A stretch of DNA of 64,000 nt from an uncultured Candidatus Bathyarchaeia archaeon (GCA_964623205.1 CAZUQX010000001.1:153954-217953); one strand, 5' to 3'. Shown: positions 28,893 through 60,063, numbered from the stretch's first letter. The notes: generated by a model from the sequence alone, not told the origin. Numbers and translations: made by a program.

Positions 28893-31157
28893 TTGACGAG
28901 AGAAGGGTTTGCGGTGAAGATCAGTAAGTTGTTTGGCAAAGAAAAAGTTGTTAATGCTTTAATGAGCGTTGGGGCTCTTCGCTTCCGCATAACGCATTCT
29001 TCGGCGCTGCACATTTCTTTACTTATCCTCATTCTTGTTATAGCCGCCGTGGTCAGACTGTTGCCTCTCCGTTGGGGTTTCCAACTCTCGGAATTTGACC
29101 CCCATGTTCATTACCGTTTAACCAAAAATATGGTTGATAATGGATTCTTCGCTTGGACCTCATGGACAGACACAATGGCCTGGTATCCTCAAGGTATCAA
29201 CTTTGGAAGCAATTTGTTTCCGGGTCTAGCAGCAACAGCGGCGTTCTTCTATCAGGTAGCCAATGCGTTGAATATTGCTCCGGCGCCGATCCTCAGCTCA
29301 AGCCTCTACCATCCTCTAACCGCTGATCCCGTTTTCAATTTCTGCATATTATTTCCGGTGATTATGGCGGTGTTGACCGTTTTAGTTATCTACTTTGTGG
29401 GAAAAGACATTGGCGGTAAAGAGGTAGGGCTTTTCTCAGCTTTCTTTTTAGCCCTAAATTCACCGTATATTGGCCGTACCTCTCTTGGTTTTTTCGACGA
29501 TGAAACCGTCGGAATCTTCGGTATCCTCCTATTCATTTTCTTCTTCCTAAGGTCCATTGATCCTGAAAGACCTCTTAGAAACAGTGTCGCCTATGGGGTC
29601 GCTGGAGGATTATCCTTGGGCTATCTCTTTTCTTCTTGGGGAGCTGCACGTTATGCTATCGGAATTACCGTGATTTTCGTCCTTGTTCTAATCTTGATAC
29701 GGCGATATTCATCCCGTCTCCTTCTATCCTACAGCGCAACATTTGGCGTGGCACTTTTCATAGCCGCAAATATACCCAAACTCGGCTTCACATTCCTAAC
29801 AGAGCCCACAGTCTTAGCAGTGGCTGGAATGTTCCTTTTATTGTGCATCTATGAAATTTCTCGCCACATCAAAACCACTAGAAATAAAACGCTTTTTGTA
29901 TTTGGCTTCTTAGCCCTTATTGTAACTCTGTTCATTGGGCTTTCAAGTCTCGGGTTAATTGGTTCCTTAGGGAAAAAGTTCATCTCAGTTATATTTCCCT
30001 CTGAGCGGCTAGGTGAAACTATTGTAGATCAACTTGTGCAGTCTGTGCAGGAACACAGACCTGCTACTTGGGGATCCCTATACTATGATGTCGGCATAGG
30101 AGTCCTCTTCATACCCGTCGGTTTGTTCTTCGCTGTGCGGAATCCCACAAACCGCAACATTTTTCTCACGATCTTCGGGCTGACAGCCATCTACTTTGCC
30201 GGTTCCATGGTTCGGTTAACTTTGCTCATGGCTCCAGCCGTTAGCATCTTATGGGCACTAGCTTTAGTTCAATTGGTCAGGCCCTTTGTCACTATTTTGC
30301 GGGAAAGTCCTAAAATTCCCAGACGTAAAATGCGTTTCAGGCCTCGTGTGGGCAAGGAATTCAGTGCGGCCTTTATTATTTTGATGTTTCTCTTGTTGAC
30401 GGTTACGTTTGTCTTGCCAAGCGCGGGATCATCGTATTCAAGAGTCGTGGATCGTGCGTATTCGCCTACAACTATTGCATCTGGGAGTTTGCCCGTTAGG
30501 CCTTCTGAACCAGTTAGAGATTGGTTAGATGCCCTCAACTGGATGCGGGTCAATTTGGAATCAACTGATGTGGTGGCGAGTTGGTGGGATTATGGTTACT
30601 GGATCACGAATATCGCTAACACAACAACTCTTGCTGATAACGGTACAGTGAATAGTACTCAGATAAGCTTGATTGGGCAAATGTTTATGTCAAACGAAAC
30701 CGAAGCTATTGAAATCCTTAAAGACTTTAATGAACGCGGGCCAAATAATGTCACATATGTTGTGGTCTACACAAGCTTTAGAGAAGACGGGTCTGATGCA
30801 GTTTATGGCGATGAAGGGAAGTGGAAATGGATGGCACGGATCGGTGGATTGGACGACGAGAAATACGGAAACTATACGCTGGGAATTGATTGGACAGATA
30901 CAAACGAGGACGGTTCAGCAGGCTCTGATGAGTTAATACCGAATGAGGTCGGAGAAAGCACGGTTTTGTACAAACTGATGCATTATGCAAGAGACATGAT
31001 TCTGAATTATGGTTATTCAGACATCACGTTAGAACATTTCGAGGGTCCGCCCCAAGGATATTTCTCACAGGAATCAGATTCTCTCAGAGCCTATTCGGAT
31101 TCAGCCACTACGTCATTTGCAGCTGTGGTATGCGTTTATAAGGTCAAGTATGATTGA
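28893..31157 (+). CDS. aglB: archaeal oligosaccharyltransferase AglB (STT3 family)
   Basis: Multi-TM N-terminal half and the WWDYGYW catalytic motif (ASWWDYGYWITN). The start is uncertain (TTG 28893, GTG 28914 or ATG 28962). Confidence 0.9.
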   Translation: MTREGFAVKISKLFGKEKVVNALMSVGALRFRITHSSALHISLLILILVIAAVVRLLPLRWGFQLSEFDPHVHYRLTKNMVDNGFFAWTSWTDTMAWYPQGINFGSNLFPGLAATAAFFYQVANALNIAPAPILSSSLYHPLTADPVFNFCILFPVIMAVLTVLVIYFVGKDIGGKEVGLFSAFFLALNSPYIGRTSLGFFDDETVGIFGILLFIFFFLRSIDPERPLRNSVAYGVAGGLSLGYLFSSWGAARYAIGITVIFVLVLILIRRYSSRLLLSYSATFGVALFIAANIPKLGFTFLTEPTVLAVAGMFLLLCIYEISRHIKTTRNKTLFVFGFLALIVTLFIGLSSLGLIGSLGKKFISVIFPSERLGETIVDQLVQSVQEHRPATWGSLYYDVGIGVLFIPVGLFFAVRNPTNRNIFLTIFGLTAIYFAGSMVRLTLLMAPAVSILWALALVQLVRPFVTILRESPKIPRRKMRFRPRVGKEFSAAFIILMFLLLTVTFVLPSAGSSYSRVVDRAYSPTTIASGSLPVRPSEPVRDWLDALNWMRVNLESTDVVASWWDYGYWITNIANTTTLADNGTVNSTQISLIGQMFMSNETEAIEILKDFNERGPNNVTYVVVYTSFREDGSDAVYGDEGKWKWMARIGGLDDEKYGNYTLGIDWTDTNEDGSAGSDELIPNEVGESTVLYKLMHYARDMILNYGYSDITLEHFEGPPQGYFSQESDSLRAYSDSATTSFAAVVCVYKVKYD

Positions 31158-37058: not shown

Positions 37059-37970
37059 TCAAATTGTTAGGGAGTGCCTGCGGTATTTGAAGAGGCCAGG
37101 AAATAAGTAATATGTAGCTCCCTTTATAGCATAACCGAGAGACTTGGCGATATCATAACCGTCACTAACTCTGTTCCGGGTTCTCGTGAAAACTCCAGCC
37201 CCACGTTCATAAGAGATCCTTCCAAACCTCGACATCAACCTAGAAATTTTCTGATCTTCAGCTATTCCCAGCTCTGGGTCATAGGGTCCATGCCCGTTAC
37301 AGGACATCCTGCAGGCAACATCATGTAACAAGGCTATGCTGCATCCGGGAACGCTAGCTCCAATTATCGCAATTCCACCTATTCTAACAGTCGGAAACTT
37401 CAGGGAAAGACGTGTCACAAAGTTTGCTCCCATGATTCCAAATCTTCTTCCTAGCTTAAGGCTGTCTCTTGGTCTCAAAGACGGAACGCTGGCGACGATA
37501 TCCTTCCTTTTGAAGGCGGAATACATCACTTCGAAATAATTCTCATATTTGTCCAATTCAGAAAATAGGTAGGCATCGTCAATCTCGGTTCCCGTAGAAA
37601 AGAGTGAGTCAATATCATGAAAAACAATTATCTTCCCCTTTGCATGCTTAAATCCTAAATTCCTTCCTATGGCGGGAGAATCCCACCACGGATACTTGAT
37701 TATTCCAGATTTCCAGAGTTTCTCCCTATACTCCTCGTATTCTTCCGGAGAAATTATTGTGGAGTCATAAATTTCGGGCAACTCCGCGTTTTCTCCTGCA
37801 TCAACAACTAAAAATTCGATTGCGTTTTTCTTTCCTGTTTTTTCTTCAAAAACCTTCTTCGCTATCTCCCAGTTGTTGAAAGTCTCTTTGAGGGCTTCTG
37901 TATTTTTCTCGCCTCTTCCTGTTGTTATCACCGAGAAGACTGGGTGTGACATAACCTCTCTTAGAAGCAT
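37059..37970 (-). CDS. glycosyltransferase-like (GT-A fold) protein
   Basis: EFLVVDAGENAE ... IGRNLGFKHAKGKIIVFHDIDS (DxD-like). By-eye evidence only. Confidence 0.4.
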   Translation of the reverse strand: MLLREVMSHPVFSVITTGRGEKNTEALKETFNNWEIAKKVFEEKTGKKNAIEFLVVDAGENAELPEIYDSTIISPEEYEEYREKLWKSGIIKYPWWDSPAIGRNLGFKHAKGKIIVFHDIDSLFSTGTEIDDAYLFSELDKYENYFEVMYSAFKRKDIVASVPSLRPRDSLKLGRRFGIMGANFVTRLSLKFPTVRIGGIAIIGASVPGCSIALLHDVACRMSCNGHGPYDPELGIAEDQKISRLMSRFGRISYERGAGVFTRTRNRVSDGYDIAKSLGYAIKGATYYLFPGLFKYRRHSLTI

Positions 37971-38017: not shown

Positions 38018-38869
38018 CTATTTGCTGATACGATATGTCTTGGAAACATATTTTCCATAGGCTAACGCAGCAATGGCTGAAACCCACGCAGCCGCATTCT
38101 GACAGAAAACATATCTCCACAAGAGGTCCCCCCCGGTAAAGGACTGGGGTCTAGATGTTACAAGACCTTCAAAGGCATTTCTGAAACCTGGAGCTATGGC
38201 ATGCAAGCCGCCGTCTATGGCTGATACTATTGGAGCTAAAGCTTTAGCTATCCCCTGCAATACCTCGATTGTTTTTAACACAAACCCATGTAAAGCCGAG
38301 TTTGCACTGTAAAGTTCAACCGCGAAATCGTTGAACAGATTAGGGTACACTAAAACATAAAGTATGATAATGGACAACAGAAAGATCGTCAAGACAGTTA
38401 CCATGCTTTCAAAGGTTAATCTGCCAAAAGAGAGCCTCCGCTGCACAAATGAAACGCCGCGAGACCGCAGAAAGAAGCTGCCAATTTGACTGAAAAAGTT
38501 CTCAATAGCCCCAAAGATCCTTCGAAGGAAGTTTAATCGTGTTTTTCTCCTTCTTGGGCGCCTTCTACGGATTTGTGAAACCTTGGCTAGAGATTGTTTA
38601 CGTGCCCCCATGGCTAAATATTTCGTAAGATATATCCAGCTTGAGACTAGGACCAGTACGACGCCAAGGGGAAGAAGATGAAAGAGAGGGCTGACAGTTA
38701 CGGTGAAAAACTTGAATGAGAAAGCCTCCGTTAGTCCTGCAACCGTGAAAAATGAGACCATGAAGAACTCGGAAATAAGCGCTAAGGCAAGAAACAAGAC
38801 TATTGTCAAGAGTCCCTTGGGTGCAGTCCACCTGAAAGTTAAGCGGTTCCTTTGTCCTTTAGACGTCAT
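38018..38869 (-). CDS. hypothetical polytopic membrane protein
   Basis: 283 aa with several TM helices and an Arg-rich loop (QIRRRRPRRRKTR). Confidence 0.45.
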   Translation of the reverse strand: MTSKGQRNRLTFRWTAPKGLLTIVLFLALALISEFFMVSFFTVAGLTEAFSFKFFTVTVSPLFHLLPLGVVLVLVSSWIYLTKYLAMGARKQSLAKVSQIRRRRPRRRKTRLNFLRRIFGAIENFFSQIGSFFLRSRGVSFVQRRLSFGRLTFESMVTVLTIFLLSIIILYVLVYPNLFNDFAVELYSANSALHGFVLKTIEVLQGIAKALAPIVSAIDGGLHAIAPGFRNAFEGLVTSRPQSFTGGDLLWRYVFCQNAAAWVSAIAALAYGKYVSKTYRISK

Positions 38870-39173: not shown

Positions 39174-40154
39174 ATGTCGAAAGTTTCGAAAAAAGAACTG
39201 CATGAGCTGTACAAAGATCATAAAGTGCAGCTTCTTATCAGCAAGTTTGTGAGCGAAGAGCTTGGTAAATTGAATCCGTTTTACGATCCGAAGCGTGGTT
39301 TTAGGTATCCGATTGTGGATGAGATTGTGGGGGGCTCCTCCAGCACAGAGCAATTTTTGCAGAAACTATTTGAGGGCGGCGTTCTGGAGAGGAAACTTCA
39401 AGACAAAATCATCTATTGTCCGTCTTGTAGTTCAGCGAACGTTTCTATTCATTACACCTGTCCTCACTGCAAATCTTTCGATGTCAAGAAGAGTGCCTTG
39501 ATTGAGCACATTAAATGTGGGTATATTGACACTGAAGACCACTTTCAGGAAGAAGGCAAACTAGTTTGTCCTAGATGCCACAAAGAATTAACAAATCCTG
39601 ATTTGGACTATCACAAAGCAGGAGTATGGTGTACCTGTAATCAATGTAGCAAGAGCTTTGACATTCCGGTTCCAGCCCACTTTTGCCGTGAATGCCATGA
39701 AGGATTCAGTTTTGATGAAGCCATTTACAAAGACGTGTACTCCTACAGTTTAACCTCAGATGCTAAACAAGAAGCGACGATTGGTTGGGTTCTGATCGCG
39801 CCTATGATGGAATTTTTGGATGGTCTCGGATTCGAAGTAGAGAGTCCTGGTTTCTTGAATGGAAAATCTGGGACCAGTCACATGTTTGACTTAACCGCCG
39901 TCTCTGCTGGGAAGAAACAAAACACAACCGCAATTGATCTTGCAACTTCCACGGAGGGTGTTGTATCTGAGCAGTCGGTAATCTCGATGTTTGCTAAGAT
40001 TTTTGATGCTACACCAGACAAGGCGTGTCTTGTGGCGATTCCAAAGATGAATGAGAACGGGAAGAAATTGGCGGCACTTTACAAGATAGATCTGATTGAG
40101 GCCAAAGATCAGGATGCGGCACTAGAAGCATTGAAGGCTTGCGTAGCGAAATAA
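39174..40154 (+). CDS. multi-zinc-ribbon protein with C-terminal alpha/beta domain
   Basis: CPSC..CPHC, CPRC..CNQC and CREC pairs in the centre. The C-terminal block is GKSGTSHMFDLTAV. The gene is convergent with the pilus operon, with stops 1 nt apart. Confidence 0.55.
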   Translation: MSKVSKKELHELYKDHKVQLLISKFVSEELGKLNPFYDPKRGFRYPIVDEIVGGSSSTEQFLQKLFEGGVLERKLQDKIIYCPSCSSANVSIHYTCPHCKSFDVKKSALIEHIKCGYIDTEDHFQEEGKLVCPRCHKELTNPDLDYHKAGVWCTCNQCSKSFDIPVPAHFCRECHEGFSFDEAIYKDVYSYSLTSDAKQEATIGWVLIAPMMEFLDGLGFEVESPGFLNGKSGTSHMFDLTAVSAGKKQNTTAIDLATSTEGVVSEQSVISMFAKIFDATPDKACLVAIPKMNENGKKLAALYKIDLIEAKDQDAALEALKACVAK

Positions 40155-40155
40155 A

Positions 40156-43023
40156 TCAACTTCCGGAATATACTGCAGTGTTTCCCCGTTCAGTCACAAC
40201 TTTCACGGTGTAATTACCTGTTGGTAACCCGATGTCTGTGCGAAGGTAATTTTTGGTATCTGCAGAATTCACGAAAACATCTATGCCGTAATGTTGATGG
40301 TCTGTCGAGTTAATTATCCATAATGAGACCAGATGGAGGGTTAGGCCTCCGTCGTTTTTGAAGGTAAATCGAGTTCCGTCCACTTTTACTCTAACTCCCA
40401 GAAAATCTACATCAACAGATGTTTGGTCACTATCGGCACCCAAGTCCACAAATTTGACGTTTATTGTACCGTTGCTATGAACATAGCTTTGCCATACATT
40501 TGTGAGATTCACAGCATAGTAGTCCCACCCTGTTGTCGGCGTGTAGCCTTGGGTATAGTTGAAGCCGTAGTCACTGTAGGTGGAGGCTGTCCAGTTGTAG
40601 GCTTTCAGATACCATTTCTCTGCAGAGTGATCAGCCCTATACCTCAACTGTATCTCAACTGCTTGAATATCTTCCAACAGGTATGTGGACGTGTCTATTG
40701 TGAAAGCTCCGTTTATGTCAAGTTGATAATTTTCGGGGCTTAGTTCTATAAGGTCGGCTTTGAAGTCAAAGCTTGTGTCTGTTGTTTTCACTCCTTTAAG
40801 TTTCATCCTCCAGTGGCTTGTGGCGTTTCTGAAATGGGTAGGATTCTGCGTTATTGTTTGGCTTTGGGCCTCATCTGTATCTGCAGTGGCGCTTGACAGG
40901 TAATTTATGTAGCCGTCTCCGCTTGTTGGATAAGCCCCAAGGGTGAAATTATAAAGTTGCATTGTAACATTCACTGAACCCGTTGTCCATGCGCTGTCGA
41001 TCATCCAAGTTAGCTGACTCCAATCTTCCATGTCGCTTGAACCCGTGAATTCAACCTCTGCAATGTATTCGCTGGACCAGACGTGTAGTAGCGTTGCATC
41101 AATGTCCCAGCTGTCTTGGGTGGCATCGCCTGTTTCTATTCCTCCTTTGAATCTGATCGTAAATGTTGAAGAGGCGAGGTATGAGGAGACTGACGCGTTG
41201 TTCCATCCGCTCGTGAGGTCTGTGAAAATGTTTTGCCATTCTGTGCCGGTCCAAACGTCTACCCGAAGGTTTTCAATAGGTGGGGCGCCAAAGGGAACAT
41301 CGGAGGCGAAGGCGTAGCTTCCGGAACCTGAACCATCGTTGTTATCGGGTCCCACATCATCGAAATTGTTGTTTAGCTTGAAGTAGGACCTTAGGTTAGT
41401 TTCGGAGCCGGTGAGTTCGGTGTTGTAGTCGCTTTGTATCTCAGGTAAGTTTCGATCGGTATCCCAGTATCTCAGATCTTCTCCATGGCCATCTGTTGCA
41501 TCTACGCCTCCTCTAGCGGCCATGAAATTGTTTTGTGTGACACCTAAAGTTGAAACTGTAGATGTCCAGGCGTTGTTGTAGGCGTCCTGTGCTGGAGAAG
41601 TGTCTTGGTCTCCAACGTATAGATACAGGTCGTCAGTGTTTTCGTCCCATACGATTGCAATGAAGTACCATTCTTCGGCTGTGAAGCTTGTGCTGCTTGT
41701 AAGAGAACTTGTACCTCCCCAGTCAAGAACCAGATTTGTGCCAGAAAATCTAGCTTCCATGTCAGTGTGTTGACCCCATGGTCTATCAGCAATTGTGTCC
41801 CATTGAATCCAGAATGATATAGTTCCTGTTGTGGAGCCCCAGTTAGGGGTTCCGTTACCGATTTGCATGTATCCACCTGTGGCATCCAGAGAATGCGAGT
41901 TACTTCCCGTGTTTACATAGATTGCTAGCCCCTCGTTAGTTTCATCGTAGTCAACGTTAGTCCATTGGACTTCTAAATCTAATTCGCAATTGGTTTGGTC
42001 TGTTTCCTTATTCACAGTCACCAAATCAACATAAGCATCATCGTTGGAATAGCTCGTAGTTGTATGCCATCGTATTTTGAAATCTGAGTTGAAATATTGG
42101 CTATCTGTAACTTCTACTTGATAGTAGAGCCATTGAGTGGATGATGTTGCTCCCAGATCATAAATTGTATCCCAAAAAAACCCATCATAATATTGAAGCA
42201 CAAACTCGTTAGGCTCGCATCCTCCATCTCTGTACCAGAAGTCCACGTAAATCGCGTCTGCATCAGAACAATCTATATCGGGAGTAGTCAGGTCTCCAGA
42301 GCGTCCACTAGAGCCATCAAAATATGCTGAATAGGATCCATCGTAGGCCTGGCTGTCATCTTTATTCCAATAGCCAGTTTCAGTCCACCCGGCTGGAGGC
42401 CAAGTGCCTTCAAATGATTCTGCATCAATCAATGTAGTATTTCCCAAACCTCCACTGTTTCCCTCAGTCAACATATCGTAAACCGAGTTTGGGCCAGTCT
42501 GTTGTGCTGTGAAGTTTCTGTGGGTTCCTTTGTCAGCAGAGGAGTCTAAGTCAGACGTGTTGTTGTCTACGAAATCTGGCGTATCTGTTTCTGTGGAATA
42601 GCTTCTGAAACTCATGTAGGTACCGTCATCTAAAGTTAAATCTGAAACACTTCCTGAAACCCAGCTCGTTGAACCACCAAGACTATACACGGAAGGACTG
42701 TGAGGCAGAACTGAAGTTTCACTGAACCTCTCGAAAACCTCGTCAGCGGTTTGCGTATTCACATAAGTTCCATTTACGAGGATGCCTGTGTTCACTGTAT
42801 ATTCGCTTTGGGCTCCAAGCCAGGAAGAACTAGTGACTTGTTCAACATTGGTGATGCTGGCGTTCTCTTTTAGTTTCTCCCAGTCATGCTGGTTCATCTC
42901 ATAACTCCACAAGACAATATTGGAGACTATTGCTAGAATGATCACTAGGCTAAGGGCAATAACTATTACGTTGCTGATGCCCCTTCGGTCCCTTTTAAGA
43001 CGGCGACGTGTAATAGTCCACAA
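40156..43023 (-). CDS. 955-aa secreted pilin-like adhesin (class III signal peptide; LamG-like and anchor-J/MAM-like beta domains)
   Basis: The N-terminus KRDRRG|ISNVIVIALSLVIILAIV is an archaeal prepilin-type signal. The internal GTISFWIQWDT...EEWYFIAIVWDENTDDLYLYVGD matches the LamG pattern. It is W/Y/T/N/D-rich. Confidence 0.7.
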   Translation of the reverse strand: MWTITRRRLKRDRRGISNVIVIALSLVIILAIVSNIVLWSYEMNQHDWEKLKENASITNVEQVTSSSWLGAQSEYTVNTGILVNGTYVNTQTADEVFERFSETSVLPHSPSVYSLGGSTSWVSGSVSDLTLDDGTYMSFRSYSTETDTPDFVDNNTSDLDSSADKGTHRNFTAQQTGPNSVYDMLTEGNSGGLGNTTLIDAESFEGTWPPAGWTETGYWNKDDSQAYDGSYSAYFDGSSGRSGDLTTPDIDCSDADAIYVDFWYRDGGCEPNEFVLQYYDGFFWDTIYDLGATSSTQWLYYQVEVTDSQYFNSDFKIRWHTTTSYSNDDAYVDLVTVNKETDQTNCELDLEVQWTNVDYDETNEGLAIYVNTGSNSHSLDATGGYMQIGNGTPNWGSTTGTISFWIQWDTIADRPWGQHTDMEARFSGTNLVLDWGGTSSLTSSTSFTAEEWYFIAIVWDENTDDLYLYVGDQDTSPAQDAYNNAWTSTVSTLGVTQNNFMAARGGVDATDGHGEDLRYWDTDRNLPEIQSDYNTELTGSETNLRSYFKLNNNFDDVGPDNNDGSGSGSYAFASDVPFGAPPIENLRVDVWTGTEWQNIFTDLTSGWNNASVSSYLASSTFTIRFKGGIETGDATQDSWDIDATLLHVWSSEYIAEVEFTGSSDMEDWSQLTWMIDSAWTTGSVNVTMQLYNFTLGAYPTSGDGYINYLSSATADTDEAQSQTITQNPTHFRNATSHWRMKLKGVKTTDTSFDFKADLIELSPENYQLDINGAFTIDTSTYLLEDIQAVEIQLRYRADHSAEKWYLKAYNWTASTYSDYGFNYTQGYTPTTGWDYYAVNLTNVWQSYVHSNGTINVKFVDLGADSDQTSVDVDFLGVRVKVDGTRFTFKNDGGLTLHLVSLWIINSTDHQHYGIDVFVNSADTKNYLRTDIGLPTGNYTVKVVTERGNTAVYSGS

Positions 43024-43408
43024 CCTTTGTTCCCCTCCGGGTTACAACCTTAATCTCATAAACGGAGTCTGAACTCCAACTACAAGTGACGTTCAACCAA
43101 CCATGCTTATCCTCTTCCAATTCAAGAGACGTAAACGATTGCGATACACGGTCAACATACACGGCAGCTATCTTGATAGAAACCTTGCCCACATTGCGAA
43201 TGTACATTGAAACCTGATCTGTCGTAAACCAAACATCCTCAACAATGAGGCGTTCACCCATATTGTCGTGAAGATTATCTGTGATAACATAAGTAGCTGA
43301 AACAGCAATCGACATAGCAACAACAGCAAGAACCATCAATAAGAGATTGCTCAAGACAGGGGTTATTCCCCTCCTGTTCCGCAGTAGTTTTCTCACATTT
43401 TTCACCAT
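42995..43408 (-). CDS. archaeal type IV pilin
   Basis: RNRRG|ITPVLSNLLLMVLAVVAMSIAV class III signal peptide. ATG 43408 overlaps the upstream stop (TAATG). The ORF track extends to 43441. Confidence 0.75.
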   Translation of the reverse strand: MVKNVRKLLRNRRGITPVLSNLLLMVLAVVAMSIAVSATYVITDNLHDNMGERLIVEDVWFTTDQVSMYIRNVGKVSIKIAAVYVDRVSQSFTSLELEEDKHGWLNVTCSWSSDSVYEIKVVTRRGTKVVDYYTSPS

Positions 43409-44223
43409 TACACTACAAATTTGAAGGTCAGATATCCGCAAATCAAGAGAATAACACTGTGTTTTAGTCCGCCGCCAACTGTTCCCTCGCCCATTTTTCC
43501 AGCGACGAGACCTCCGAAGAAGGCTTGTATGGCACCCATGTGAAAGAAAATCTTTCTTGCTTCCTCAGGAGCCATCAGCTCAAACTGGCTTGTGGGGATA
43601 TCCGCCATGTCAACAAAGAAAGATTTGAAGAGCATAATAATTGTGAAGAGGAAGACGAAGAACGCCACGTAGATAATCGCAAGATAAGGCCTAGTCTGAG
43701 TTTTACGCTCGGCATCAAATGTCAAAATTGTCTGCACAAATTTCTGCAGCGGATCAAAAACTTCTTCAACCTTTCCTCCTGACCTGTGAGCTTCGAGAAT
43801 CAAGGGAATTGTTCGTCCTATAAGAGCGGTGTCAACACGCTGGCCAAAGGATTGAAGCGCCTCTTCGAAGGGCACTCCCCAGCTCATCTGGGCTACCATC
43901 TTCTTCAGTTCCTTGGTCAAAGGTCCATAATTCCTCTTAGATGCTTCCTCCAACGCCTGCGGCAAAGTCATCCCGGTTTTTTGAGCTTGAACTATGCTTC
44001 GAAAGAGGTCGGGAAGATGTTTGTCGATAGATCTCTTCCAACGATAATCTGCATAATCGAGGACAGCTGGAGGAAAAACGGTGATCACCACCGCTAATAG
44101 GAAATATTCATCGAAGAGAGGGCTATCCCTAAGGAAGAGGACAGCCGTTACGCATATTATTACCCCTAGAATACTCGAGACAATCCAAGCGATTTTCTTC
44201 TCAGACTTTCTAACTTTAGGCAT
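43408..44223 (-). CDS. type IV pilus platform protein, single T2SSF domain (TadC/EpdK-like)
   Basis: LPDLFRSIVQAQKTGMTLPQALEEA ... LILEAHRSGGKVEEVF plus C-terminal TM helices. Confidence 0.7.
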   Translation of the reverse strand: MPKVRKSEKKIAWIVSSILGVIICVTAVLFLRDSPLFDEYFLLAVVITVFPPAVLDYADYRWKRSIDKHLPDLFRSIVQAQKTGMTLPQALEEASKRNYGPLTKELKKMVAQMSWGVPFEEALQSFGQRVDTALIGRTIPLILEAHRSGGKVEEVFDPLQKFVQTILTFDAERKTQTRPYLAIIYVAFFVFLFTIIMLFKSFFVDMADIPTSQFELMAPEEARKIFFHMGAIQAFFGGLVAGKMGEGTVGGGLKHSVILLICGYLTFKFVV

Positions 44224-44227
44224 AGTG

Positions 44228-45118
44228 TCATCTCTTCGGCGACATCATATCCAAGATTACCAGAAATATCATTGACCCAATCGGCAAGCCGATGTAGGTC
44301 AAAAGTTGCAATAATAGACGAGAGTCCAAAGGACCAAATCCCCCACTCCCCAGCATAGCCATAACCGCAAGCATTACTATGAAGATGAGGGATCCCGCAA
44401 CCATCAGAGTGACGTAAAACTCCGCCAGAACTCCAAGAGTATCAGAGAAACGCTGCAGTGCAATCTGCTTTAATTTCATGTATTCTTGCGATCGGTCGCT
44501 GAGATATTTTTCCAAGTCTCCTCCTGAGTGGACAACGGCAATGAACCCTTCAAGCATCTCTTTAAACTTTTCAGAAGGCGTTCGCAGAGATGTATTTTCC
44601 AATGCTGAAATGGCGTTATAGCCGAAAAGCTCTATGTCCCGGACTATGGTTCTCGCCACGTTAGAGATTGCCAACGAGGCGTCAATTTGGGCTAAGGAAC
44701 GCCATATAAAGTCCGGAGGCACACCGGCCCCAGCTAAAATCGACATATATCCTACAGTAAAAGGGAGCTCATCATCCAAGGCTCTCTTCAGACTGTCTGC
44801 CCGAGATTTTGGATAAGAATAGAAACCTATCACGGTTAAAGCTCCTGCAAATAAACTTGCTCCGGCTCCAAAGAGAAGCGATTGAAAAAGAGAAAATCCA
44901 AAGATGAAAAATAAAAGCGCTGGAACAACAATTATAAGCGAGACAGATACCAACAGGCTCGCAAGAATGGCCGCGCTGACGTACGCTTTGAAGTTAACTC
45001 TCATCCCTGACTTCTTTAGGCTCACGTCCAAATCTTTGAACAATGGCAAGAATCGGTTTGCTCCTCCTAAGATGCGATAAGCTCTTTTGAGCCCCCCTCC
45101 CTCTTTGTTTGAAGTCAT
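44228..45118 (-). CDS. type IV pilus platform protein, single T2SSF domain (TadB/EpdJ-like)
   Basis: LPFTVGYMSILAGAGVPPDFIWRSLAQ ... FIAVVHSGGDLEKYL with TM helices at both ends. Confidence 0.7.
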   Translation of the reverse strand: MTSNKEGGGLKRAYRILGGANRFLPLFKDLDVSLKKSGMRVNFKAYVSAAILASLLVSVSLIIVVPALLFFIFGFSLFQSLLFGAGASLFAGALTVIGFYSYPKSRADSLKRALDDELPFTVGYMSILAGAGVPPDFIWRSLAQIDASLAISNVARTIVRDIELFGYNAISALENTSLRTPSEKFKEMLEGFIAVVHSGGDLEKYLSDRSQEYMKLKQIALQRFSDTLGVLAEFYVTLMVAGSLIFIVMLAVMAMLGSGGFGPLDSRLLLQLLTYIGLPIGSMIFLVILDMMSPKR

Positions 45119-46632
45119 GATTGTCCCAACCTAGCCTTTCGAAAGACGCGGATGGGATCAGCATAGTATTCTCTGATGACCGAAACGACATCGCTGTACT
45201 TACGAATCTCCTTTTTCACCATCCAGTCTAGTACCGTTTTTCTTCGATTAAGCTCCTCTAGAACCTCTTTTTCATCAAGTCCTTTGCGGTTCATTTTTTC
45301 ATCCAAGATGTGGCTATGGCCAGAATATACGTAAGTATCATGTCTTGCATCCCACCGATACACTTCGTTGGTTAACAGTTCCCTTGTCTTGGGATCTAAA
45401 CCAACGATCTCTGTTACTGTGCGAGTTCTTCGGGCGGGTTTTCCATTAACTTCGGTTCGCAACTGAACAGTTATAGCATCAATCATTGTTAGGAGAGGCC
45501 TCGGAATGTTCATTGGTTCTGATTCCAAACGGTGAATAACTGAACTTGCAGATTCGCCATGGATTGTTCCCATTCCTAGGTGACCTGTTGCCATGGCTTG
45601 GAAGAGGGTGTAAGCTTCTTCTCCCCGAACCTCGCCCACAAGTAGGTAATCTGGTCTCTGACGAACAGCTGCCTTCAAAAGATCAAAGAGCGTAACAGTT
45701 CTAGCACCTCTCTTATCGTGTCCGAACCCCATTCTTGCAACTGATGGAATCCAATTTTCGTGGGGCAAGTTTAACTCAGCAGTATCTTCTACACTGACTA
45801 CCTTTAGTTCAGGTTTGATGAACATCGAAAAGCAGTTGAGTGCAGTTGTTTTTCCAGAGGCTACACCACCGGATACGAGAATTGATGCCCTGTTTTCTAT
45901 TGCATACCAGAAGTATGCAGCCATATCAGATGAGAGAGTTCCGAAGGAGATCAGGTCAGAGATGGTGAGGGGGTCGGTACGGAAGCGCCGTATCGTAAAA
46001 GTTGAGCCTCTGCGGGTAATTTCGTCTCCGTAGGTCATTTGAACTCGGCTGCCGTCGGGTAGAGACGCGTCAACTATTGGCATTGCAAGGGAAATGTTCT
46101 TTTTCGACAAGTAAGCCAGTCTTACTATGAAGGAGTTTAGTTCTTCGCTGTTTTTGAAGAGAACGTTTGTTGGGAGAGATTCGTAGTTGCGGTGCCAAAC
46201 GTAGATTGGTATATTAACTCCGTCTGCTGATATGTCTTCGATCAGAGGGTCTTTCATGAGAGGATCTATTTTCCCGTAGCCTAGGAAGTCCCGTATGATG
46301 AAGTACATTAGTTTGTCCACAGCTTCCTCGGCGATTTTGAGGCGGTAATCCTTGATGATTTCAAGAATCTTAGTTTTTAAATACTCTTCAGCCTTGTCTC
46401 GTGTTCCGATTTCTTTGAGGTTGACATTGATTTCTTCAACCAATATATCTTTGATTTCTTTGAGTTGATCTTCCTCTTCTTTGATGAGGGTGGGTTCGAT
46501 CAGTTCATATTTTATTCGCTGGGTTTTTGGTTCAGTAACCACTGCCGCGTAGACGTAAGGCTCATGGATGGGGTATACCTCTCGGAAAACCGAGGCTTTT
46601 TTTTCAGGCGTAGATTCTGAGTTACCTTTCAT
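45115..46632 (-). CDS. FlaI/TadA/VirB11-family type IV filament assembly ATPase
   Basis: Walker A SGGVASGKTT, Walker B region PDYLLVGEVRGEEA and the His-box TGHLGMGTIH. 505 aa. 4-nt overlap with the next gene. Confidence 0.85.
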   Translation of the reverse strand: MKGNSESTPEKKASVFREVYPIHEPYVYAAVVTEPKTQRIKYELIEPTLIKEEEDQLKEIKDILVEEINVNLKEIGTRDKAEEYLKTKILEIIKDYRLKIAEEAVDKLMYFIIRDFLGYGKIDPLMKDPLIEDISADGVNIPIYVWHRNYESLPTNVLFKNSEELNSFIVRLAYLSKKNISLAMPIVDASLPDGSRVQMTYGDEITRRGSTFTIRRFRTDPLTISDLISFGTLSSDMAAYFWYAIENRASILVSGGVASGKTTALNCFSMFIKPELKVVSVEDTAELNLPHENWIPSVARMGFGHDKRGARTVTLFDLLKAAVRQRPDYLLVGEVRGEEAYTLFQAMATGHLGMGTIHGESASSVIHRLESEPMNIPRPLLTMIDAITVQLRTEVNGKPARRTRTVTEIVGLDPKTRELLTNEVYRWDARHDTYVYSGHSHILDEKMNRKGLDEKEVLEELNRRKTVLDWMVKKEIRKYSDVVSVIREYYADPIRVFRKARLGQS

Positions 46633-55149: not shown

Positions 55150-57375
55150 ATGCCGAGGCAGCGAAGAAAATCGGGTCTAAGGGTTCTCAAGGCTGCGTCA
55201 TCCTCCTTGCGTATGCAGCTTCTTCTCATTCTTGTAGACAAGGGACCTCAGTCCTACACTGACCTCATGAAGATTCTGAAGCTCAATCCAAGCAGAGACG
55301 CAGGAAGGTTCGCCTATCACCTCAAATACCTCCTCAAAGCCGACCTTATAGAACCTGACGTAGACAACAAGGAATACCGCATAACTGACCTCGGCAAAAC
55401 CATGATCAGTTTCACAGAGGACATCCAGCAACAGTTTTTCCAAAGAAAAAAGATTCTCGTTCGAACCTCCCGCCTAGCCATGGAAGAATTTGACAGAAAC
55501 AAGATTGTTGAATCCTTGGTAAAGGAGGCAAACGTCCCCATATCCCAAGCTCAGAAAATCGCTAGAGAAACCGAAAAACGCCTCTTAGAGTTTAAGACAA
55601 AATACTTGACAGCTCCTCTAATACGGGAAATTGTCAACGCCATCCTCATAGAAAAAGGCCTAGAAGAATACCGCCACAAACTCACACGCCTCGGACTCCC
55701 AGTCTTCGACGTAAATCAACTGATAACGTCAACTGGCACCACATCCCAGAGCGTGGGAGCGATTCACCAAGCGGCTGCTGACGCCGTCATGGAAGAGTAC
55801 ACCCTCCTCAACGTTCTTCCAAGAGATATTGCCGACGCCCACCTTTCTGGAGGTCTCCACCTCAAAAATCTCGGAACCTGGGTTTTGAAACCTGACCAAT
55901 TCATGCATGACCTACGCTTTTTCCTTCAAGGGGGATTGAGCCGTGGAGGACTGAACCTTCAGGAGCCATCTTATTTTCCGCCCAAAAGCCTAGAAAGCGC
56001 GCTACTAACAGCTTCCAACATTCTGAAAATCGCTGCCAGAGAAGTCTCTGGAGAACAGGCTCTGGACTTCTTCAACATCTTTTTAGCCCCCTTCACTCAA
56101 GGTCTTTCAGAAGAAAGAATTAGCGACGGGCTACGCCTCTTTGTCTCAAACTTGAATCAACCCCTCTCAGAGGGAGGTTCAGTGGGAGCTTCCTTGGGTC
56201 TAGAATTTCTCGTCCCTGACTTCCTGAAAGAGGAGGAAGCCATTGGACCTGAAGGAAAAAATGTAGGATGTTACGGAGATTTTGTTGAGGAAAGCCGCCG
56301 CCTAGCCTCCATTCTTCTCAAGGTCATTTCTGAAGATGACATGCATAAACCAGTTTTCAATCCACGTTTGGTAATAAAGATACGCCCTGAAGTCCTCGAA
56401 GACAGGGAATGCACCTCTCTTCTCTTCGAGTCTCATAAACTTGCGGCTGAAACAGGTCTTCCCTACTTCGCTAACCTCTGTCCAAAGGAACAGATGAGGG
56501 CATCTTATACTTCAACTGGTTTCAGGCTAGCGTCTGAATGGAGAGGAGACTGGGAACTGGATACCCTGCAGACAGGTAGCGTGGACAGCGCGATAGTGAA
56601 CTTGCCGAGGGTCATGTATGAAGCAGAGGGCAGAGAAACCAACTTTTTCCGCCTATTAGACGAGCAACTGGAAATGGCTTTACGGGCCTTGGAGATAAAA
56701 TATCGAACCATCAAACAACGGGCAAGGGAACATCTTCTCCCATTCCTGATGCAGAAGACTGACGGAGACCAATACTTCAGAATCAAAAACTCCGTCCGCC
56801 TCGTCAGCTTCGTAGGCTTGAACGAAACCATCCAAGCGTTCTTCGGGAAACCCTTACGGCAAGATGGCGAGACCCTCGATTTTGCCAAGAAAATAGTTAC
56901 TTATCTTTCCAGTGACATTAAGAAGTATTCAAGGAAGCCTGAGACCCGAGCGTCCCTAGCTATGATGCCTGCCGCCGATGCCGCGAAAAGACTGGCAGAA
57001 CTTGATGCGGAAAAATATGGGTGGGCAAAGGTTCGTGCCCAAGGCACAAGAGAAAAACCTTTCTACACTGACTTGGTTGCCCTGCCGTTAGGAGTCGACG
57101 TTTCCTGGAAAGAACGGTTAAGGGTTGAGGAGAAATTCCACAGGTTGACTTCGGGAGGTCACTTAGCCGTTTTGCCGCTCGTTGACTCTGAGCAAGAGCC
57201 GGATGAATTGGTTTCGTTCACCAAAGGTGTCGCTGGAACTTACGGGGTTGGGCTCTACGTTTTCAATCGGAATATTGCCTATTGTGCGAGTTGCCAGAAG
57301 ACTTTCATTGGGAAATTGGCGAGGTGCCCGTCATGTGGATCCGTTAATATGCTCCAGTCCTTCAGTCGTATATAA
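55150..57375 (+). CDS. wHTH + ATP-cone + NrdD-like (class III RNR-like) protein lacking catalytic Cys and the glycyl-radical motif
   Basis: ArsR-like wHTH (residues about 15-95), ATP-cone (KILVRTSRLAMEEFDRNKIVESL...), then colinear similarity to the downstream NrdD (ADAHLSGGLH, FLAPF, GLPYFANL, NLPRV, CASC..CPSCGS). It ends ...SFSRI* without a GY motif. Confidence 0.75.
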   Translation: MPRQRRKSGLRVLKAASSSLRMQLLLILVDKGPQSYTDLMKILKLNPSRDAGRFAYHLKYLLKADLIEPDVDNKEYRITDLGKTMISFTEDIQQQFFQRKKILVRTSRLAMEEFDRNKIVESLVKEANVPISQAQKIARETEKRLLEFKTKYLTAPLIREIVNAILIEKGLEEYRHKLTRLGLPVFDVNQLITSTGTTSQSVGAIHQAAADAVMEEYTLLNVLPRDIADAHLSGGLHLKNLGTWVLKPDQFMHDLRFFLQGGLSRGGLNLQEPSYFPPKSLESALLTASNILKIAAREVSGEQALDFFNIFLAPFTQGLSEERISDGLRLFVSNLNQPLSEGGSVGASLGLEFLVPDFLKEEEAIGPEGKNVGCYGDFVEESRRLASILLKVISEDDMHKPVFNPRLVIKIRPEVLEDRECTSLLFESHKLAAETGLPYFANLCPKEQMRASYTSTGFRLASEWRGDWELDTLQTGSVDSAIVNLPRVMYEAEGRETNFFRLLDEQLEMALRALEIKYRTIKQRAREHLLPFLMQKTDGDQYFRIKNSVRLVSFVGLNETIQAFFGKPLRQDGETLDFAKKIVTYLSSDIKKYSRKPETRASLAMMPAADAAKRLAELDAEKYGWAKVRAQGTREKPFYTDLVALPLGVDVSWKERLRVEEKFHRLTSGGHLAVLPLVDSEQEPDELVSFTKGVAGTYGVGLYVFNRNIAYCASCQKTFIGKLARCPSCGSVNMLQSFSRI

Positions 57376-57861: not shown

Positions 57862-60063
57862 ATGACTGAAGTGATTCAAAAACTTCGACCCGCTGTTAGG
57901 AAAACCGACGGCTTCATGGTACCGTGGGATCGAGGGGAAATCGTGGAACAGCTCCTAACAGAGACGAAACTAGCTGAGGAATTCTATGAAACAAGGTCCA
58001 TAAGCAAAGAAGAGGCTGAAGAGATAGCCTTTGAGGTGGAACGGAAGGTCTTTGACCTACAGCTTAAGTTCATCAGCGGACCCCTCATACGAGAACTGGT
58101 GAACAATGTCCTTCTCGCAAAGTCCAGAGAGAAACCCGAATTTGCTCTCTACAGAAACATTTTGACTAGGGTAGGCGCGCCCGTCTATAACGCCTATCTG
58201 ATGGACATGGGAAAGGGTTTCAAGGCAAAGGAAAACGCGAATCTTCAACCTAATCCTGAGACCGCCCATAAGAGGAAGGCTGACTGGGTTTCGGGAGAAG
58301 AATACCTGCTGTTGATGCCTCCGAAGATCGCTGACGCGCATCTGTCCGGAGACCTCCACATCCATGACTTGGAGTATTTCGGAACGAGACCTTTCTGCCA
58401 GGATTGGGACCTCCGCTACTTCTTCTATTACGGGTTGATGCCGGATGGAATCGGCACGAGAACAAGCATTGCTGGGCCGGCTAAGCATGCGGAGGTGGCG
58501 ATTCTGCACACTGCTAAGATTCTGGCTTCTGCTCAGACAAACTTTGCTGGTGGCGAGGGTTTCTATAACTTTCTGGTCTTCCTAGCTCCTTATGTTAGGG
58601 GTGTAAGTTACGAGCGGATTAAGCAACTTATGCAGATGATGTTCTTTGAGTATACTCAGGCTTATGTAGCCAGAGGTGGGCAGCTGGTCTTCAGTAACAT
58701 TCAGGTGCAGCCTGGGGTTCCTGAGCTGTGGAGAAACGTTCCTGTGGTGATGCACGGACATGTTGGACCGGACGTTTACGGCGATTACGAGGATGAAGTT
58801 CGTCTCATGTTTCGCGCTCTTTATGATGTGGCTTATCAGGGTGACTATTGGGGAAAGCCCTTCAACTTTCCGAAACTTGAGAACTCTTTGAGTCCAGAGT
58901 TTTTCAAGCCAGAATATGACGATGTGTGGCTTGACGTTCACAAGGTTGTAGCCAAGTTTGGGCTGCCTTACTTTGATAATCTGATGCCGGCTTACAGGGG
59001 CTACGGTAAAGGGGTTTCCTGTTATCAGTGCTGTGCCTACTGTTTTGTTGAAACTCCGGAAGACAGCGAGGACTTTGAGGATAAGCTCTACTTCAACAAC
59101 GGAAAGCATTTCACCATGGGAAGCTGGCAGGTTACGAGTCTGAATCTTCCAAGGATAGCTTACAGAGCCAATGGAAATGACGAGAAGCTCTTTGAGGAGA
59201 GCCGCAGGCTGATGGACTTAGCTCTTGAAGTGTTCATAGCCAAGAAGAAATGGATGAACCTTGTTCTGAAGCATAATCGGATACCCTTCGCTACCCAACG
59301 TCCCTTGGATCCTCGTACTGGCGAGAAGGGAACTCAGGCTGTGGACTTTGATCAACTGACCTTTACGATAGGTCTTGTGGGAGGAAACGAGATGGCTCAG
59401 CATCACACCGGCTACCAACTGCACGAAAACTCGGAAGCAGTTAAGATTCTGGTTAAGCTGATTCTTGAGATGCAGAAATATAAGAAGGTGCTGGAGGAGC
59501 GAAGCGGCTACAAGATTGCGTTAGCTAGGACGCCGGCTGAGTCCACAGCCCAGAGATTCGCAATTGCTGATCTCCTTACGAACGGTTATCGAGACAATGC
59601 GGAGAAGCTTGTTAAGGGAAATGTGGAGCAAGCCAAGTTTCTCCTTGCTGAAAGAAAGAAGGATGTTCCTGTCTATTACAGCAATGGGACGCATGCTTAT
59701 GTAGGCGCTAAGATGGGGTTGTTTGACCGGATGAACCTTGAGCAGAAGTTCTTCCCCCTCTTGAATGGTGGAAACATGTTACATATCTGGCTGGGAGATG
59801 CTTCTCCGGATCCTGAAGCTCTCTATAAACTGACCAAGAGGATCACCACTAAGAGCAACATAGGTTACTACGCATACACTAAGGACTTAACCGTCTGCAG
59901 CGACTGTGGAAAAGTCACTTCGCCCATACGTGAACAGTGTCCCCACTGCGGCTCCACCCAAGTAGAATGGTGGTCCAGAGTAACAGGCTACTATCAAGCA
60001 GTGAGCGGATGGAACAAAGGCAAAAGACAAGAACTAATAGACAGATACAGAACCGGACTGTAA
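57862..60063 (+). CDS. nrdD: anaerobic (class III) ribonucleoside-triphosphate reductase
   Basis: ATP-cone at the N-terminus, ADAHLSGDLHIHDL, the Cys-rich loop SCYQCCAYCF, the C-terminal CSDCG...CPHCGS zinc site and the SRVTGYY glycyl-radical motif. Confidence 0.88.
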   Translation: MTEVIQKLRPAVRKTDGFMVPWDRGEIVEQLLTETKLAEEFYETRSISKEEAEEIAFEVERKVFDLQLKFISGPLIRELVNNVLLAKSREKPEFALYRNILTRVGAPVYNAYLMDMGKGFKAKENANLQPNPETAHKRKADWVSGEEYLLLMPPKIADAHLSGDLHIHDLEYFGTRPFCQDWDLRYFFYYGLMPDGIGTRTSIAGPAKHAEVAILHTAKILASAQTNFAGGEGFYNFLVFLAPYVRGVSYERIKQLMQMMFFEYTQAYVARGGQLVFSNIQVQPGVPELWRNVPVVMHGHVGPDVYGDYEDEVRLMFRALYDVAYQGDYWGKPFNFPKLENSLSPEFFKPEYDDVWLDVHKVVAKFGLPYFDNLMPAYRGYGKGVSCYQCCAYCFVETPEDSEDFEDKLYFNNGKHFTMGSWQVTSLNLPRIAYRANGNDEKLFEESRRLMDLALEVFIAKKKWMNLVLKHNRIPFATQRPLDPRTGEKGTQAVDFDQLTFTIGLVGGNEMAQHHTGYQLHENSEAVKILVKLILEMQKYKKVLEERSGYKIALARTPAESTAQRFAIADLLTNGYRDNAEKLVKGNVEQAKFLLAERKKDVPVYYSNGTHAYVGAKMGLFDRMNLEQKFFPLLNGGNMLHIWLGDASPDPEALYKLTKRITTKSNIGYYAYTKDLTVCSDCGKVTSPIREQCPHCGSTQVEWWSRVTGYYQAVSGWNKGKRQELIDRYRTGL

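Follow-up and report, generated by a model that had tools for sequence, protein, structure and literature searches.

A predicted split pilin with nested lectin-type modules, a candidate pilus-borne adhesin of Bathyarchaeia

Several described systems stand close to the gene examined in this study, an open reading frame (ORF) of 955 codons encoding 955 amino acids (aa) (40156..43023, -) in 64,000 nucleotides (nt) of DNA from an uncultured Candidatus Bathyarchaeia archaeon (GCA_964623205.1 CAZUQX010000001.1:153954-217953; this whole stretch is called the window hereafter, positions are counted from its first letter, and the strand is given as + or -). The pilin of the Pyrobaculum calidifontis pilus was solved by cryo-electron microscopy (8FK7; PMC10334743). 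In Streptococcus sanguinis, PilC (with Ig and ConA-like lectin modules) and PilB (with a vWA module) are modular pilins whose modules were modelled at the pilus tip (PMC9934059, PMC8179133). GspK, the minor pseudopilin K of type II secretion, has a domain inserted in the pilin beta-sheet, and its bulk restricts it to the filament tip (PMC8179133). For UpsA, a variable region was proposed to bind species-specific S-layer N-glycans (PMC7064770). Lastly, an archaeal type IV pilus (T4P) 'subsystem 4A' was described that consists of two platform genes, an ATPase, a pilin, and an adhesin (Makarova et al. 2016, PMC4858521; Sivabalasarma & Albers 2026, preprint 10.64898/2026.04.22.720090). The large protein of such loci appears in the relevant sections of these surveys (PMC4858521; preprint 10.64898/2026.04.22.720090) as an 'adhesin' remotely similar to PilY or as a possible S-layer protein, and large signal-peptide proteins are mentioned there as possible minor pilins or adhesins.

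In the Bathyarchaeia locus, the large protein appears to be a paralogue of the 137-aa pilin encoded immediately upstream and to belong to the same family, because its two chain ends, once joined, match this small pilin, 8FK7, and UpsA. Nested all-beta modules totalling ~820 residues are predicted to separate strand A (residue ~63) from strand B (residue ~884) of the pilin beta-sandwich. The C-terminal 72 residues would form the rest of the pilin fold, and the other domains would be nested insertions and not appendages to the pilin head.

Pilin homology of the chain ends and start of the gene

Profiles were needed for the comparison, as a BLASTP search between the small and the large pilin gave a match of 14 residues only (E 0.05). 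A profile of 45 small pilins was aligned by hhalign to residues 1-65 joined to residues 883-955, taken from 43 orthologues. The joined halves matched with a probability of 97% (E 1.1e-10) over 126 columns with a gap-free junction, and independent alignments gave 98% (E 1.4e-13, 129 columns). Each part also matched on its own (N part, E 8.6e-6; C part, E 1.4e-5), whereas the neighbouring domain 765-883, used as a control, reached only E 0.19. The family profile of the small pilin matched 8FK7 over nearly the full length (E 3.6e-14). Among 177,635 PDB sequences, 8FK7 was likewise the best match of the joined-half profile (E 3.1e-4, positions 14-132 versus 6-136). Additionally, the joined sequence from the window aligned to the NCBIfam model of UpsA (NF046073; 13-136 versus 1-129 of 136, E 6.4e-4). 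The two halves are homologous to pilins.

The N-terminal half contains the alpha-1 helix (residues 16-52; 42868..42978, -), a hydrophobic core helix that is followed by the invariant motif WSYEMNQxDWEK and aligns to the helix of the small pilin and to that of 8FK7. Strand A (residues 55-65, ASITNVEQVTS; 42829..42861, -; strand 55-69 according to DSSP) is the last pilin element before the insertion; its counterpart in the small pilin is the strand ERLIVEDVWF, and the alignment runs gap-free through the junction to residue 883. The C-terminal half of the beta-sandwich (residues 884-955, TRFTFKNDGG...YTVKVVTERGNTAVYSGS; 40159..40374, -) comprises strands B-G and matches the small pilin, 8FK7, and UpsA. 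In and next to it, G883, N890, W902, H909, T944, R946, G947, and N948 were invariant among 29 homologues, and the C-terminus of the large pilin, YTVKVVTERGNTAV, resembles that of the small one, YEIKVVTRRGTKVV. In the AlphaFold2 (AF2) model of the 955-aa protein (mean predicted local distance difference test score, pLDDT, 78.5), helices 17-42 and 45-52 and a strand 55-69 precede a disordered stretch (70-104), after which only beta domains follow. The model of a natural 290-aa orthologue (pLDDT 80.3, predicted template modelling score 0.66) consists of helix 13-51, strand 55-65, a jelly-roll, and a six-strand C-terminal sheet, which together with strand A gives seven strands.

The ORF starts with a TTG at 43023 (43023-43021), the first start codon past the in-frame stop 43044-43042. 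The Shine-Dalgarno-like (SD-like) motif GGAGGGGA (43031..43038, -) was read from the sequence 5' of this TTG. The leader (residues 1-15, MWTITRRRLKRDRRG; 42979..43023, -) is of class III (prepilin) type, with predicted cleavage after Gly15. In the signal motif RRG/ISNVIVIALSLVIILAIV (beginning RRG/ISNVIV; the slash marks the cleavage site), a basic leader is followed by a hydrophobic stretch from position +1. G15 was invariant and R14 nearly invariant in the 29 homologues; in 62 orthologues, position -1 was G or A and position -2 mostly K or R. A motif scan of every possible ORF start found a class-III-like N-terminus in only two genes of the 64-kb window, the 955-aa ORF and its upstream neighbour. 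The N-terminus and its prepilin-type signal are exactly those quoted in an earlier sequence-only reading of this DNA, and the genuine start lies upstream of the signal. The composition also agrees with the T/S/D/N/Y/W-rich and Cys-poor protein described there (T 11.6, S 10.1, D 9.5, N 6.6, Y 5.7, and W 3.8 %; 3 Cys).

Were translation to begin at the internal Met43, the signal would remain untranslated, and the product would not be a pilin but a soluble or otherwise exported multi-domain surface protein. The public gene calls of orthologues P0003, P0005, P0007, P0042, P0060, and P0069 do start at this methionine (MNQxDWEK). However, the TTG located 14-16 codons before the cleavage Gly is the sole possible start in at least 16 orthologous loci, and an SD-like motif lies ahead of the TTG in ~30 orthologous loci and ahead of the chosen start in 44 of 66 loci. 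In the 37 codons 5' of Met43, the window differed from 64 orthologues 777, 364, and 1300 times at codon positions 1, 2, and 3, respectively, and 801 of the 1608 differing codons were synonymous. Moreover, G15, S17, I20, L24, L26, N44, Q45, D47, W48, and E49 were invariant in the 29 aligned homologues. The product starting at Met43 would lack an export signal, yet it would carry 17 N-X-S/T sequons and extracellular-type domains. An internal Met start, which had been named as the finding that would overturn the prepilin assignment, is therefore rejected on account of the sole TTG starts, the third-position bias, and the invariant residues 5' of Met43. We consider it extremely unlikely, and among the alternatives discussed in this study it alone is contradicted by the data. 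The TTG start was overlooked in several public gene calls, a systematic annotation error through which the signal peptide and the pilin helix are lost from the annotations of the orthologues.

Inserted modules and the length series

Scans of the whole protein against Pfam, NCBIfam, and PDB sequences returned only a chance match to DUF3112 and an antibody chain. As whole-protein scans were blind, domains were excised before scanning, and the LamG domain and the segment D8 were found in this way.

The insertion begins with S1 (residues 64-104, SSW..QSEY..G.Y.DTQ; 42712..42834, -), a conserved segment that is found only together with D8 and that the models leave partly disordered. It is followed by D1 (residues 105-149, YSLGGSTSWVSGSVSDL..DGTYMSFRSY; 42577..42711, -; pLDDT 93-95), probably the first part of a discontinuous beta-sandwich that D4 would complete; P110, T119, S123, G124, L129, M137, and S141 were invariant in the 29 homologues. 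The connector motif (residues 150-190, DFVDNNTSDLDSSADKGTHRNFTAQQTGPNSVYDMLTE; 42454..42576, -) had no match to a known family. This motif of ~38 aa (DFVDNNTSDxDSSADKGTHSNFxAQQxGPDSxYDxLTE) is present once or repeatedly between the modules of family members (e.g., P0059, P0093, and P0099).

D2 (residues 193-342; 41998..42447, -) is a variable, all-beta jelly-roll (pLDDT ~90) present in some orthologues only. Residues 201-305 (AESFEG...QWLYYQVEV) are the block that the sequence-only reading had likened to choice-of-anchor-J/MAM domains. This likeness did not hold: neither the segment nor any of its 15 homologous segments (0 of 16) matched MAM (PF00629) or choice-of-anchor J in Pfam, NCBIfam, or PDB sequences, and the assignment was rejected. 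The only matches were weak: D2 of the 955-aa protein reached 19.3 bits with PF14741 (GH114_assoc), under the cut-off of 22, and of the 16 segments in all, 3 matched PF14741 (best E 1.9e-4) and 3 choice-of-anchor F (best E 0.012). The MAM matches found by Foldseek are generic for jelly-rolls, since they recurred for an orthologue that lacks residues 193-342.

The next module, D3, is a sandwich of ~95 aa whose first two strands form D3a (residues 345-372, NCELDLEVQWTNVDYDETNEGLAIYV; 41908..41991, -) and whose remainder is D3b (residues 584-650, ENLRVDVWTG..FTIRFKGG..WDIDATLLHVW; 41074..41274, -). Inserted in a loop of D3 lies a LamG/concanavalin A-like domain (residues 375-579; 41287..41901, -). 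After excision, this domain matched PF13385 (Laminin_G_3) above threshold (E 4.3e-8, 33.9 bits, cut-off 27.6) over profile positions 2-151 of 151, which bears out the LamG/concanavalin-like pattern recognized earlier in residues 400-472 (GTISFW...LYLYVGD). PF13385 was unreported in the scan of the whole protein and is precomputed for many homologues. D4 (residues 652-764, EYIAEVEFTGSS...FDFKADLIELSPE; 40732..41070, -) is a conserved sandwich with many invariant columns (pLDDT 92-97) and the putative partner of D1. The last module, D8 (residues 765-883; 40375..40731, -), is a jelly-roll of the GH114_assoc type (PF14741, 24.5 bits, cut-off 22, E 3.3e-5).

The full model resembled only multi-jelly-roll ectodomains in the PDB, with poor global TM-scores (Foldseek: reelin repeats, the MAM ectodomains of RPTP-mu and meprin, Eph ligand-binding domains, pentraxins, CBM22, and a Bacteroides carbohydrate-binding protein). 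No query-specific catalytic domain was among these matches. An enzyme with a GH16-like ConA fold was weighed and discarded, the Pfam match being Laminin_G_3 and the structural neighbours being pentraxins and carbohydrate-binding modules, not hydrolases specific to this domain.

A large protein database contained 445 significant relatives, and all named ones were from Bathyarchaeia or Bathyarchaeota. Many carry PF13385, and a few carry PF07790 (Pilin_N), CARDB, PKD, or DUF835. When one genome per GTDB species was scanned, 147 relatives were found and 79 loci kept, nearly all from Bathyarchaeia; one was labelled Thermoproteota only, one 'uncultured archaeon', and one lay in a bacterial bin. The latter (L068, DATKLC010000054.1) is a complete archaeal pilus locus filed under a metagenome-assembled genome of Krumholzibacteriaceae, probably owing to a binning error.

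The 62 orthologues that keep both protein ends span 290-966 aa and cluster at ~295, 450, 580-630, 750-830, and 955 aa. Residues 1-63 and 884-955 are kept in all of them, and the length varies by gain and loss of modules; the minimal orthologues of 290 aa consist of the N part, S1, D8, and the C part. Co-occurrence of segments was counted over 76 database homologues. S1 and D8 were both present in 24 and both absent from 52, with no discordant case, and the related loci agreed with this; D1 and D4 were both present in 64 and both absent from 8, with 4 discordant cases. LamG was never found without D3 (50 of 50 homologues), while D3 occurred without LamG in 13. D3 is contiguous in these 13 homologues and in P0057, P0059, and P0080, and is split by LamG in the 955-aa protein. 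The simplest reading of these counts is a nested order in which the pilin head encloses S1...D8 (jelly-roll A), this encloses D1...D4 (sandwich B), the latter encloses the connector, D2, and D3, and D3 encloses LamG. The co-occurring pairs would then fold as single discontinuous domains. This pairing is drawn from co-occurrence, because artificial joins of S1+D8 and of D1+D4 gave no match in Pfam; in a minimal orthologue, where S1 and D8 are naturally joined, the match to PF14741 began only at profile position 18.

This variation bears on an alternative in which the protein has no part in a filament. It would then anchor or gate the machinery as a pilin-like membrane protein, in the manner of the archaellum stators ArlF and ArlG or of S-layer-associated components, with its beta-modules contacting the envelope. 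Such a role would agree with weak matches of the small-pilin profile to FlaG/ArlG soluble domains (6PBK and 5TUG, E 0.18-0.28; ArlG, E 0.69) and with the proposal, made in parts of the review literature on archaeal T4P, that Ig-rich proteins in such loci may prime the S-layer. However, the FlaG/ArlG matches lack significance, unlike that to a true filament pilin, and a stator whose length ranges from 290 to 966 aa among close relatives, through exchange of exposed binding modules, would be unexpected. We therefore regard this alternative as very unlikely.

Two further groups of proteins share parts of this architecture. D1...D4, D2, and D3 with LamG also occur in P0012, P0016, P0017, P0032, and P0044, which combine an ordinary signal peptide with a transmembrane helix at the C-terminal end and a cytoplasmic DUF835 domain. 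As judged from these sequences, the module cassette appears to be common to pilins and putative surface receptors. Furthermore, a second class of large Bathyarchaeia pilins (P0028 and P0108; loci L015, L033, L063, and L066) has a contiguous N-terminal pilin module with the additional modules C-terminal to it. The pilin module of this class matched the small-pilin profile with E 2.4e-4 (hhalign), and the gene order is small pilin, large pilin, ATPase, two TadC genes, and TackOD1.

The pilus operon and its conservation

A type IV pilus operon ends with the 955-aa gene; its preceding genes encode a FlaI-like ATPase, two TadC halves, and the 137-aa pilin. The FlaI/PilB-type secretion ATPase (505 aa; 45115..46632, -) matched PF00437 (T2SSE, E 5e-37) and PilB3_C; with the NCBIfam archaellum ATPase model it reached 434 bits, under the cut-off of 550. 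The TadC/FlaJ-type platform is split into an N-terminal half (296 aa; 44228..45118, -; PF00482, T2SSF, E 6.4e-15; ArlJ, BasF, and UpsF models) and a C-terminal half (271 aa; 43408..44223, -; PF00482, T2SSF, E 3.4e-19; ArlJ and UpsF models). The small pilin (42995..43408, -; RNRRG/ITPVLSNLLL) matched TIGR02537 with E 0.014, under the cut-off, and is presumed to be the major filament subunit and the paralogue of the split pilin.

ATPase and first TadC gene overlap by 4 nt (45115..45118), and the ATG of the small pilin overlaps the stop of the second TadC gene (TAATG, 43406..43410). Small and large pilin genes overlap by 29 nt in different frames (42995..43023), and the two TadC genes lie 4 nt apart without overlap. 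These overlaps are consistent with translational coupling. A scan of the operon for sigma-70 promoters and intrinsic terminators, models that do not apply to archaea, showed no excess over shuffled controls.

Convergent to the operon and only 1 nt from the stop of the 955-aa gene lies a gene for a TackOD1 multi-zinc-ribbon protein (39174..40154, +; PF18551, E 1.1e-39), whose family, arCOG06883, is noted in thaumarchaeal T4P loci (PMC4858521, PMC5847659). Conservation was counted in species-representative genomes for the 62 orthologues, using only loci with enough flank. The small pilin gene lies immediately upstream in 41 of 57 loci, typically with an overlap of 26-59 nt, which bears on the earlier question of whether homologues always follow a small pilin. 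ATPase-TadC-TadC were found upstream in 37 of 48 loci, and a convergent TackOD1 gene downstream in 44 of 60. The other loci represent a second, paralogous T4P locus with an ATPase ~43% identical, in which TackOD1 is co-directional and follows TadC. The closest relative of the 955-aa protein (77% identical) comes from a Ca. Bathyarchaeum genome, complete and 1.56 Mb in size, in which the synteny is the same.

The arrangement of the two pilin genes also bears on the possibility that the large pilin is a co-major subunit which polymerises over the entire length of the filament, either by itself or in alternation with the small pilin, its variable middle forming an outer sheath. In bacterial flagellins, hypervariable central domains stand between constant ends, an architecture that the invariant N- and C-terminal ends and the hypervariable, insertion-prone middle of the large pilin mirror. 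The two pilin genes appear to be translationally coupled, and the 290-aa orthologues are no larger than Ignicoccus Iho670 (303 aa, PDB 5KYH), which has a large outer domain. Likewise, UpsA and UpsB, encoded in the same order, are both held to be major subunits of mixed pili in the relevant part of PMC7064770. However, an 820-aa insert per subunit would be sterically demanding for an 8FK7-like lattice, the weak TTG start is conserved in many loci, and the small pilin is the nearer relative of the solved filament subunit (E 3.6e-14 versus 3.1e-4). A co-major role is thus clearly unlikely.

Display by a bindosome-like or pseudopilus assembly is a further alternative. The class III signal and the T4P machinery would then serve a short cell-proximal structure, or a placement in the membrane/S-layer zone, for the capture of polymeric substrates. 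Bindosome assembly with class III substrate-binding proteins is established in Sulfolobales and, according to the part of preprint 10.64898/2026.04.22.720090 concerned, was proposed to be widespread in archaea. The ATPase and TadC of the operon have secondary matches to the BasE and BasF models, the modules have carbohydrate-binding-like folds, and the same modules occur on membrane-anchored DUF835 proteins. In contrast to bindosome substrate-binding proteins, which have the signal and helix only, the 955-aa protein has a complete pilin head homologous to a proven filament-forming subunit. In addition, a dedicated small pilin is co-encoded (adjacent in 41/57 loci), and transporter genes were not found linked to the locus. 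We consider this explanation unlikely.

Beyond TackOD1, genes for a 283-aa multi-pass membrane protein with an RRRRPRRRK stretch (38018..38869, -) and for a GT2 glycosyltransferase (37059..37970, -) follow. According to tblastn, many related loci have both genes in this position, and the two may be an extension of the pilus system or part of surface glycosylation. An AglB/STT3 oligosaccharyltransferase is encoded ~9 kb from the pilus locus (28893..31157, +). In view of this gene and the 17 sequons, the 955-aa protein is itself probably N-glycosylated. More distant in the window are tandem paralogues of anaerobic ribonucleotide reductase (NrdD), one with an extra N-terminal winged-helix/DUF7347 region (55150..57375, +) and one with a zinc-ribbon insert (57862..60063, +).

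Proposed role and comparison with known systems

Our favoured interpretation is that the 955-aa protein is a filament-incorporated modular adhesin, probably sub-stoichiometric or tip-located; we consider this probable, and it retains the candidate pilus-borne adhesin that the sequence-only reading had put forward. The precursor would enter the membrane through its class III signal, and a prepilin peptidase of the A24 family, whose gene would lie in another part of the genome, would cut it after Gly15. Extraction of the hydrophobic alpha-1 helix, and its packing with the helices of small pilins in the filament core, would then fall to the FlaI-like ATPase and the split TadC platform of the operon. 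The reunited N and C halves would form a normal pilin head, from which the inserted modules would reach outward to bind their ligands; glycans, polysaccharide-rich particles, or cell surfaces are the most plausible of these. Glycans or polysaccharides are suggested as ligands by analogy with the lectin module of PilC and the N-glycan-binding region of UpsA. A minor subunit is suggested by the TTG start, by the bulk of the insert, and by translational coupling to the preceding small pilin gene; this subunit might sit at the tip as the first one assembled or be sparse along the shaft; as to its position in the filament, we reason by analogy with GspK and with S. sanguinis PilB/PilC.

Several observations weigh against an adhesin carried on a pilus. 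The score of the joined halves with the UpsA equivalog model was 19.9 bits, far from the cut-off of 130, and therefore indicates a family-level resemblance only. Neither Pfam Pilin_N (PF07790) nor the NCBIfam archaellin/pilin N-terminal models (TIGR02537) matched the 955-aa protein; PF07790 is carried by the distant relatives P0093 and P0095. The Foldseek top 50 for the model of the 290-aa orthologue contained neither 8FK7 nor another pilin, the 155-aa insert breaking the sequential alignment. The idea that S1 completes D8 is weak, since S1 has low confidence in both models (pLDDT < 50 for residues 70-104 in the AF2 model, and low confidence in that of the 290-aa orthologue). By themselves, the modules indicate 'cell surface' and not a pilus, because they also occur on the ordinary type I DUF835 membrane proteins, and LamG domains bind proteins and lipids too. 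An insert of ~90 kDa may be hard to pass through the S-layer or to fit into a filament lattice. Finally, a search for Peptidase_A24 (prepilin peptidase) in the 64-kb window by tblastn gave chance hits only. The best prepilin-peptidase candidate ORF in the window was rejected as a PAC2 protein; a Peptidase_A24 gene lies near a paralogous locus on another, related Bathyarchaeia contig.

A broader proposal is that the pilin head serves as a general insertion-tolerant display scaffold, in which one loop takes up to four nested levels (290-966 aa) while polymerisation is retained, and the filament or its tip is re-armed with species-specific lectin-like cassettes. This proposal is tentative, and we judge it possible albeit somewhat unlikely. 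If true, the locus would be an archaeal counterpart of flagellin hypervariable regions, and a possible means for uncultivated sediment archaea to attach to plant-derived polymers or partner cells.

Bathyarchaeia are among the most abundant archaea in sediments, and very few representatives are in culture. The locus is a concrete, conserved candidate for their attachment, namely a two-pilin type IV pilus whose second pilin would carry exchangeable binding modules. The natural size series of 290-966 aa could help to identify the outward-facing loop of an archaeal pilin and the amount of cargo that is tolerated per filament subunit.

Compared with the described systems, the closest likeness in the pilin itself is to 8FK7 and the small pilin. 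By profile comparison, the split pilin belongs to their family, in which a class III signal and a long alpha-1 helix precede a sandwich of seven strands with Y-x-V-K-V-V-T-x-R-G at its end, and all three are encoded beside a FlaI-like ATPase and TadC. However, the chains of 8FK7 and of the small pilin are uninterrupted and 137-144 aa long, whereas the split pilin holds ~820 residues in its strand A/B turn, and its polymerisation is a prediction. Ups pili of Sulfolobales (UpsE-UpsF-UpsA-UpsB) resemble the Bathyarchaeia operon in having an ATPase, a platform, and two pilins, and UpsA gave a weak full-length alignment. The variable region of UpsA comprises ~15 residues, as opposed to hundreds in the split pilin, and the match to UpsA is far under the equivalog cut-off. 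Unlike Ups, the Bathyarchaeia locus has its platform split in two and TackOD1 as a companion. It fits the minimal gene set of subsystem 4A and the occurrence reported for Bathyarchaeota, and arCOG06883 (TackOD1) is T4P-associated in both, as far as the corresponding sections of the surveys go. In these sections, no description of the large locus protein as a split pilin with nested inserts was found.

In its binding modules, the split pilin recalls PilB and PilC of S. sanguinis, which likewise combine a class III pilin moiety with bulky binding modules, including a PF13385/ConA-like lectin, and are predicted to be filament-presented adhesins, probably at the tip. Their modules, however, are C-terminal and joined by a short linker, whereas in the split pilin both chain ends lie in the pilin head and the modules are nested inside the fold. 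The C-terminal graft design of PilB/PilC is not found in the 955-aa protein; it is apparently present in the paralogous class (P0028 and P0108). The split pilin also comes from another domain of life, belongs to an unrelated pilin sequence family, and is without Glu5 or the N-methylation motif. GspK can be likened to it in design, but the insert of GspK is a single alpha-helical domain and that of the split pilin a species-variable chain of beta-sandwich, jelly-roll, and LamG domains.

Bacterial modular pilins with lectin modules, as well as GspK with its inserted domain, are already established. In comparison with the consulted parts of the literature, three features seem to be new: a large locus protein that is itself a pilin with its fold split by nested insertions, a natural 290-966-aa series with invariant ends, and a tight link to TackOD1 across Bathyarchaeia. 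Modules nested within a pilin fold instead of appended to it would, on the same basis, be a design new to pilus biology.

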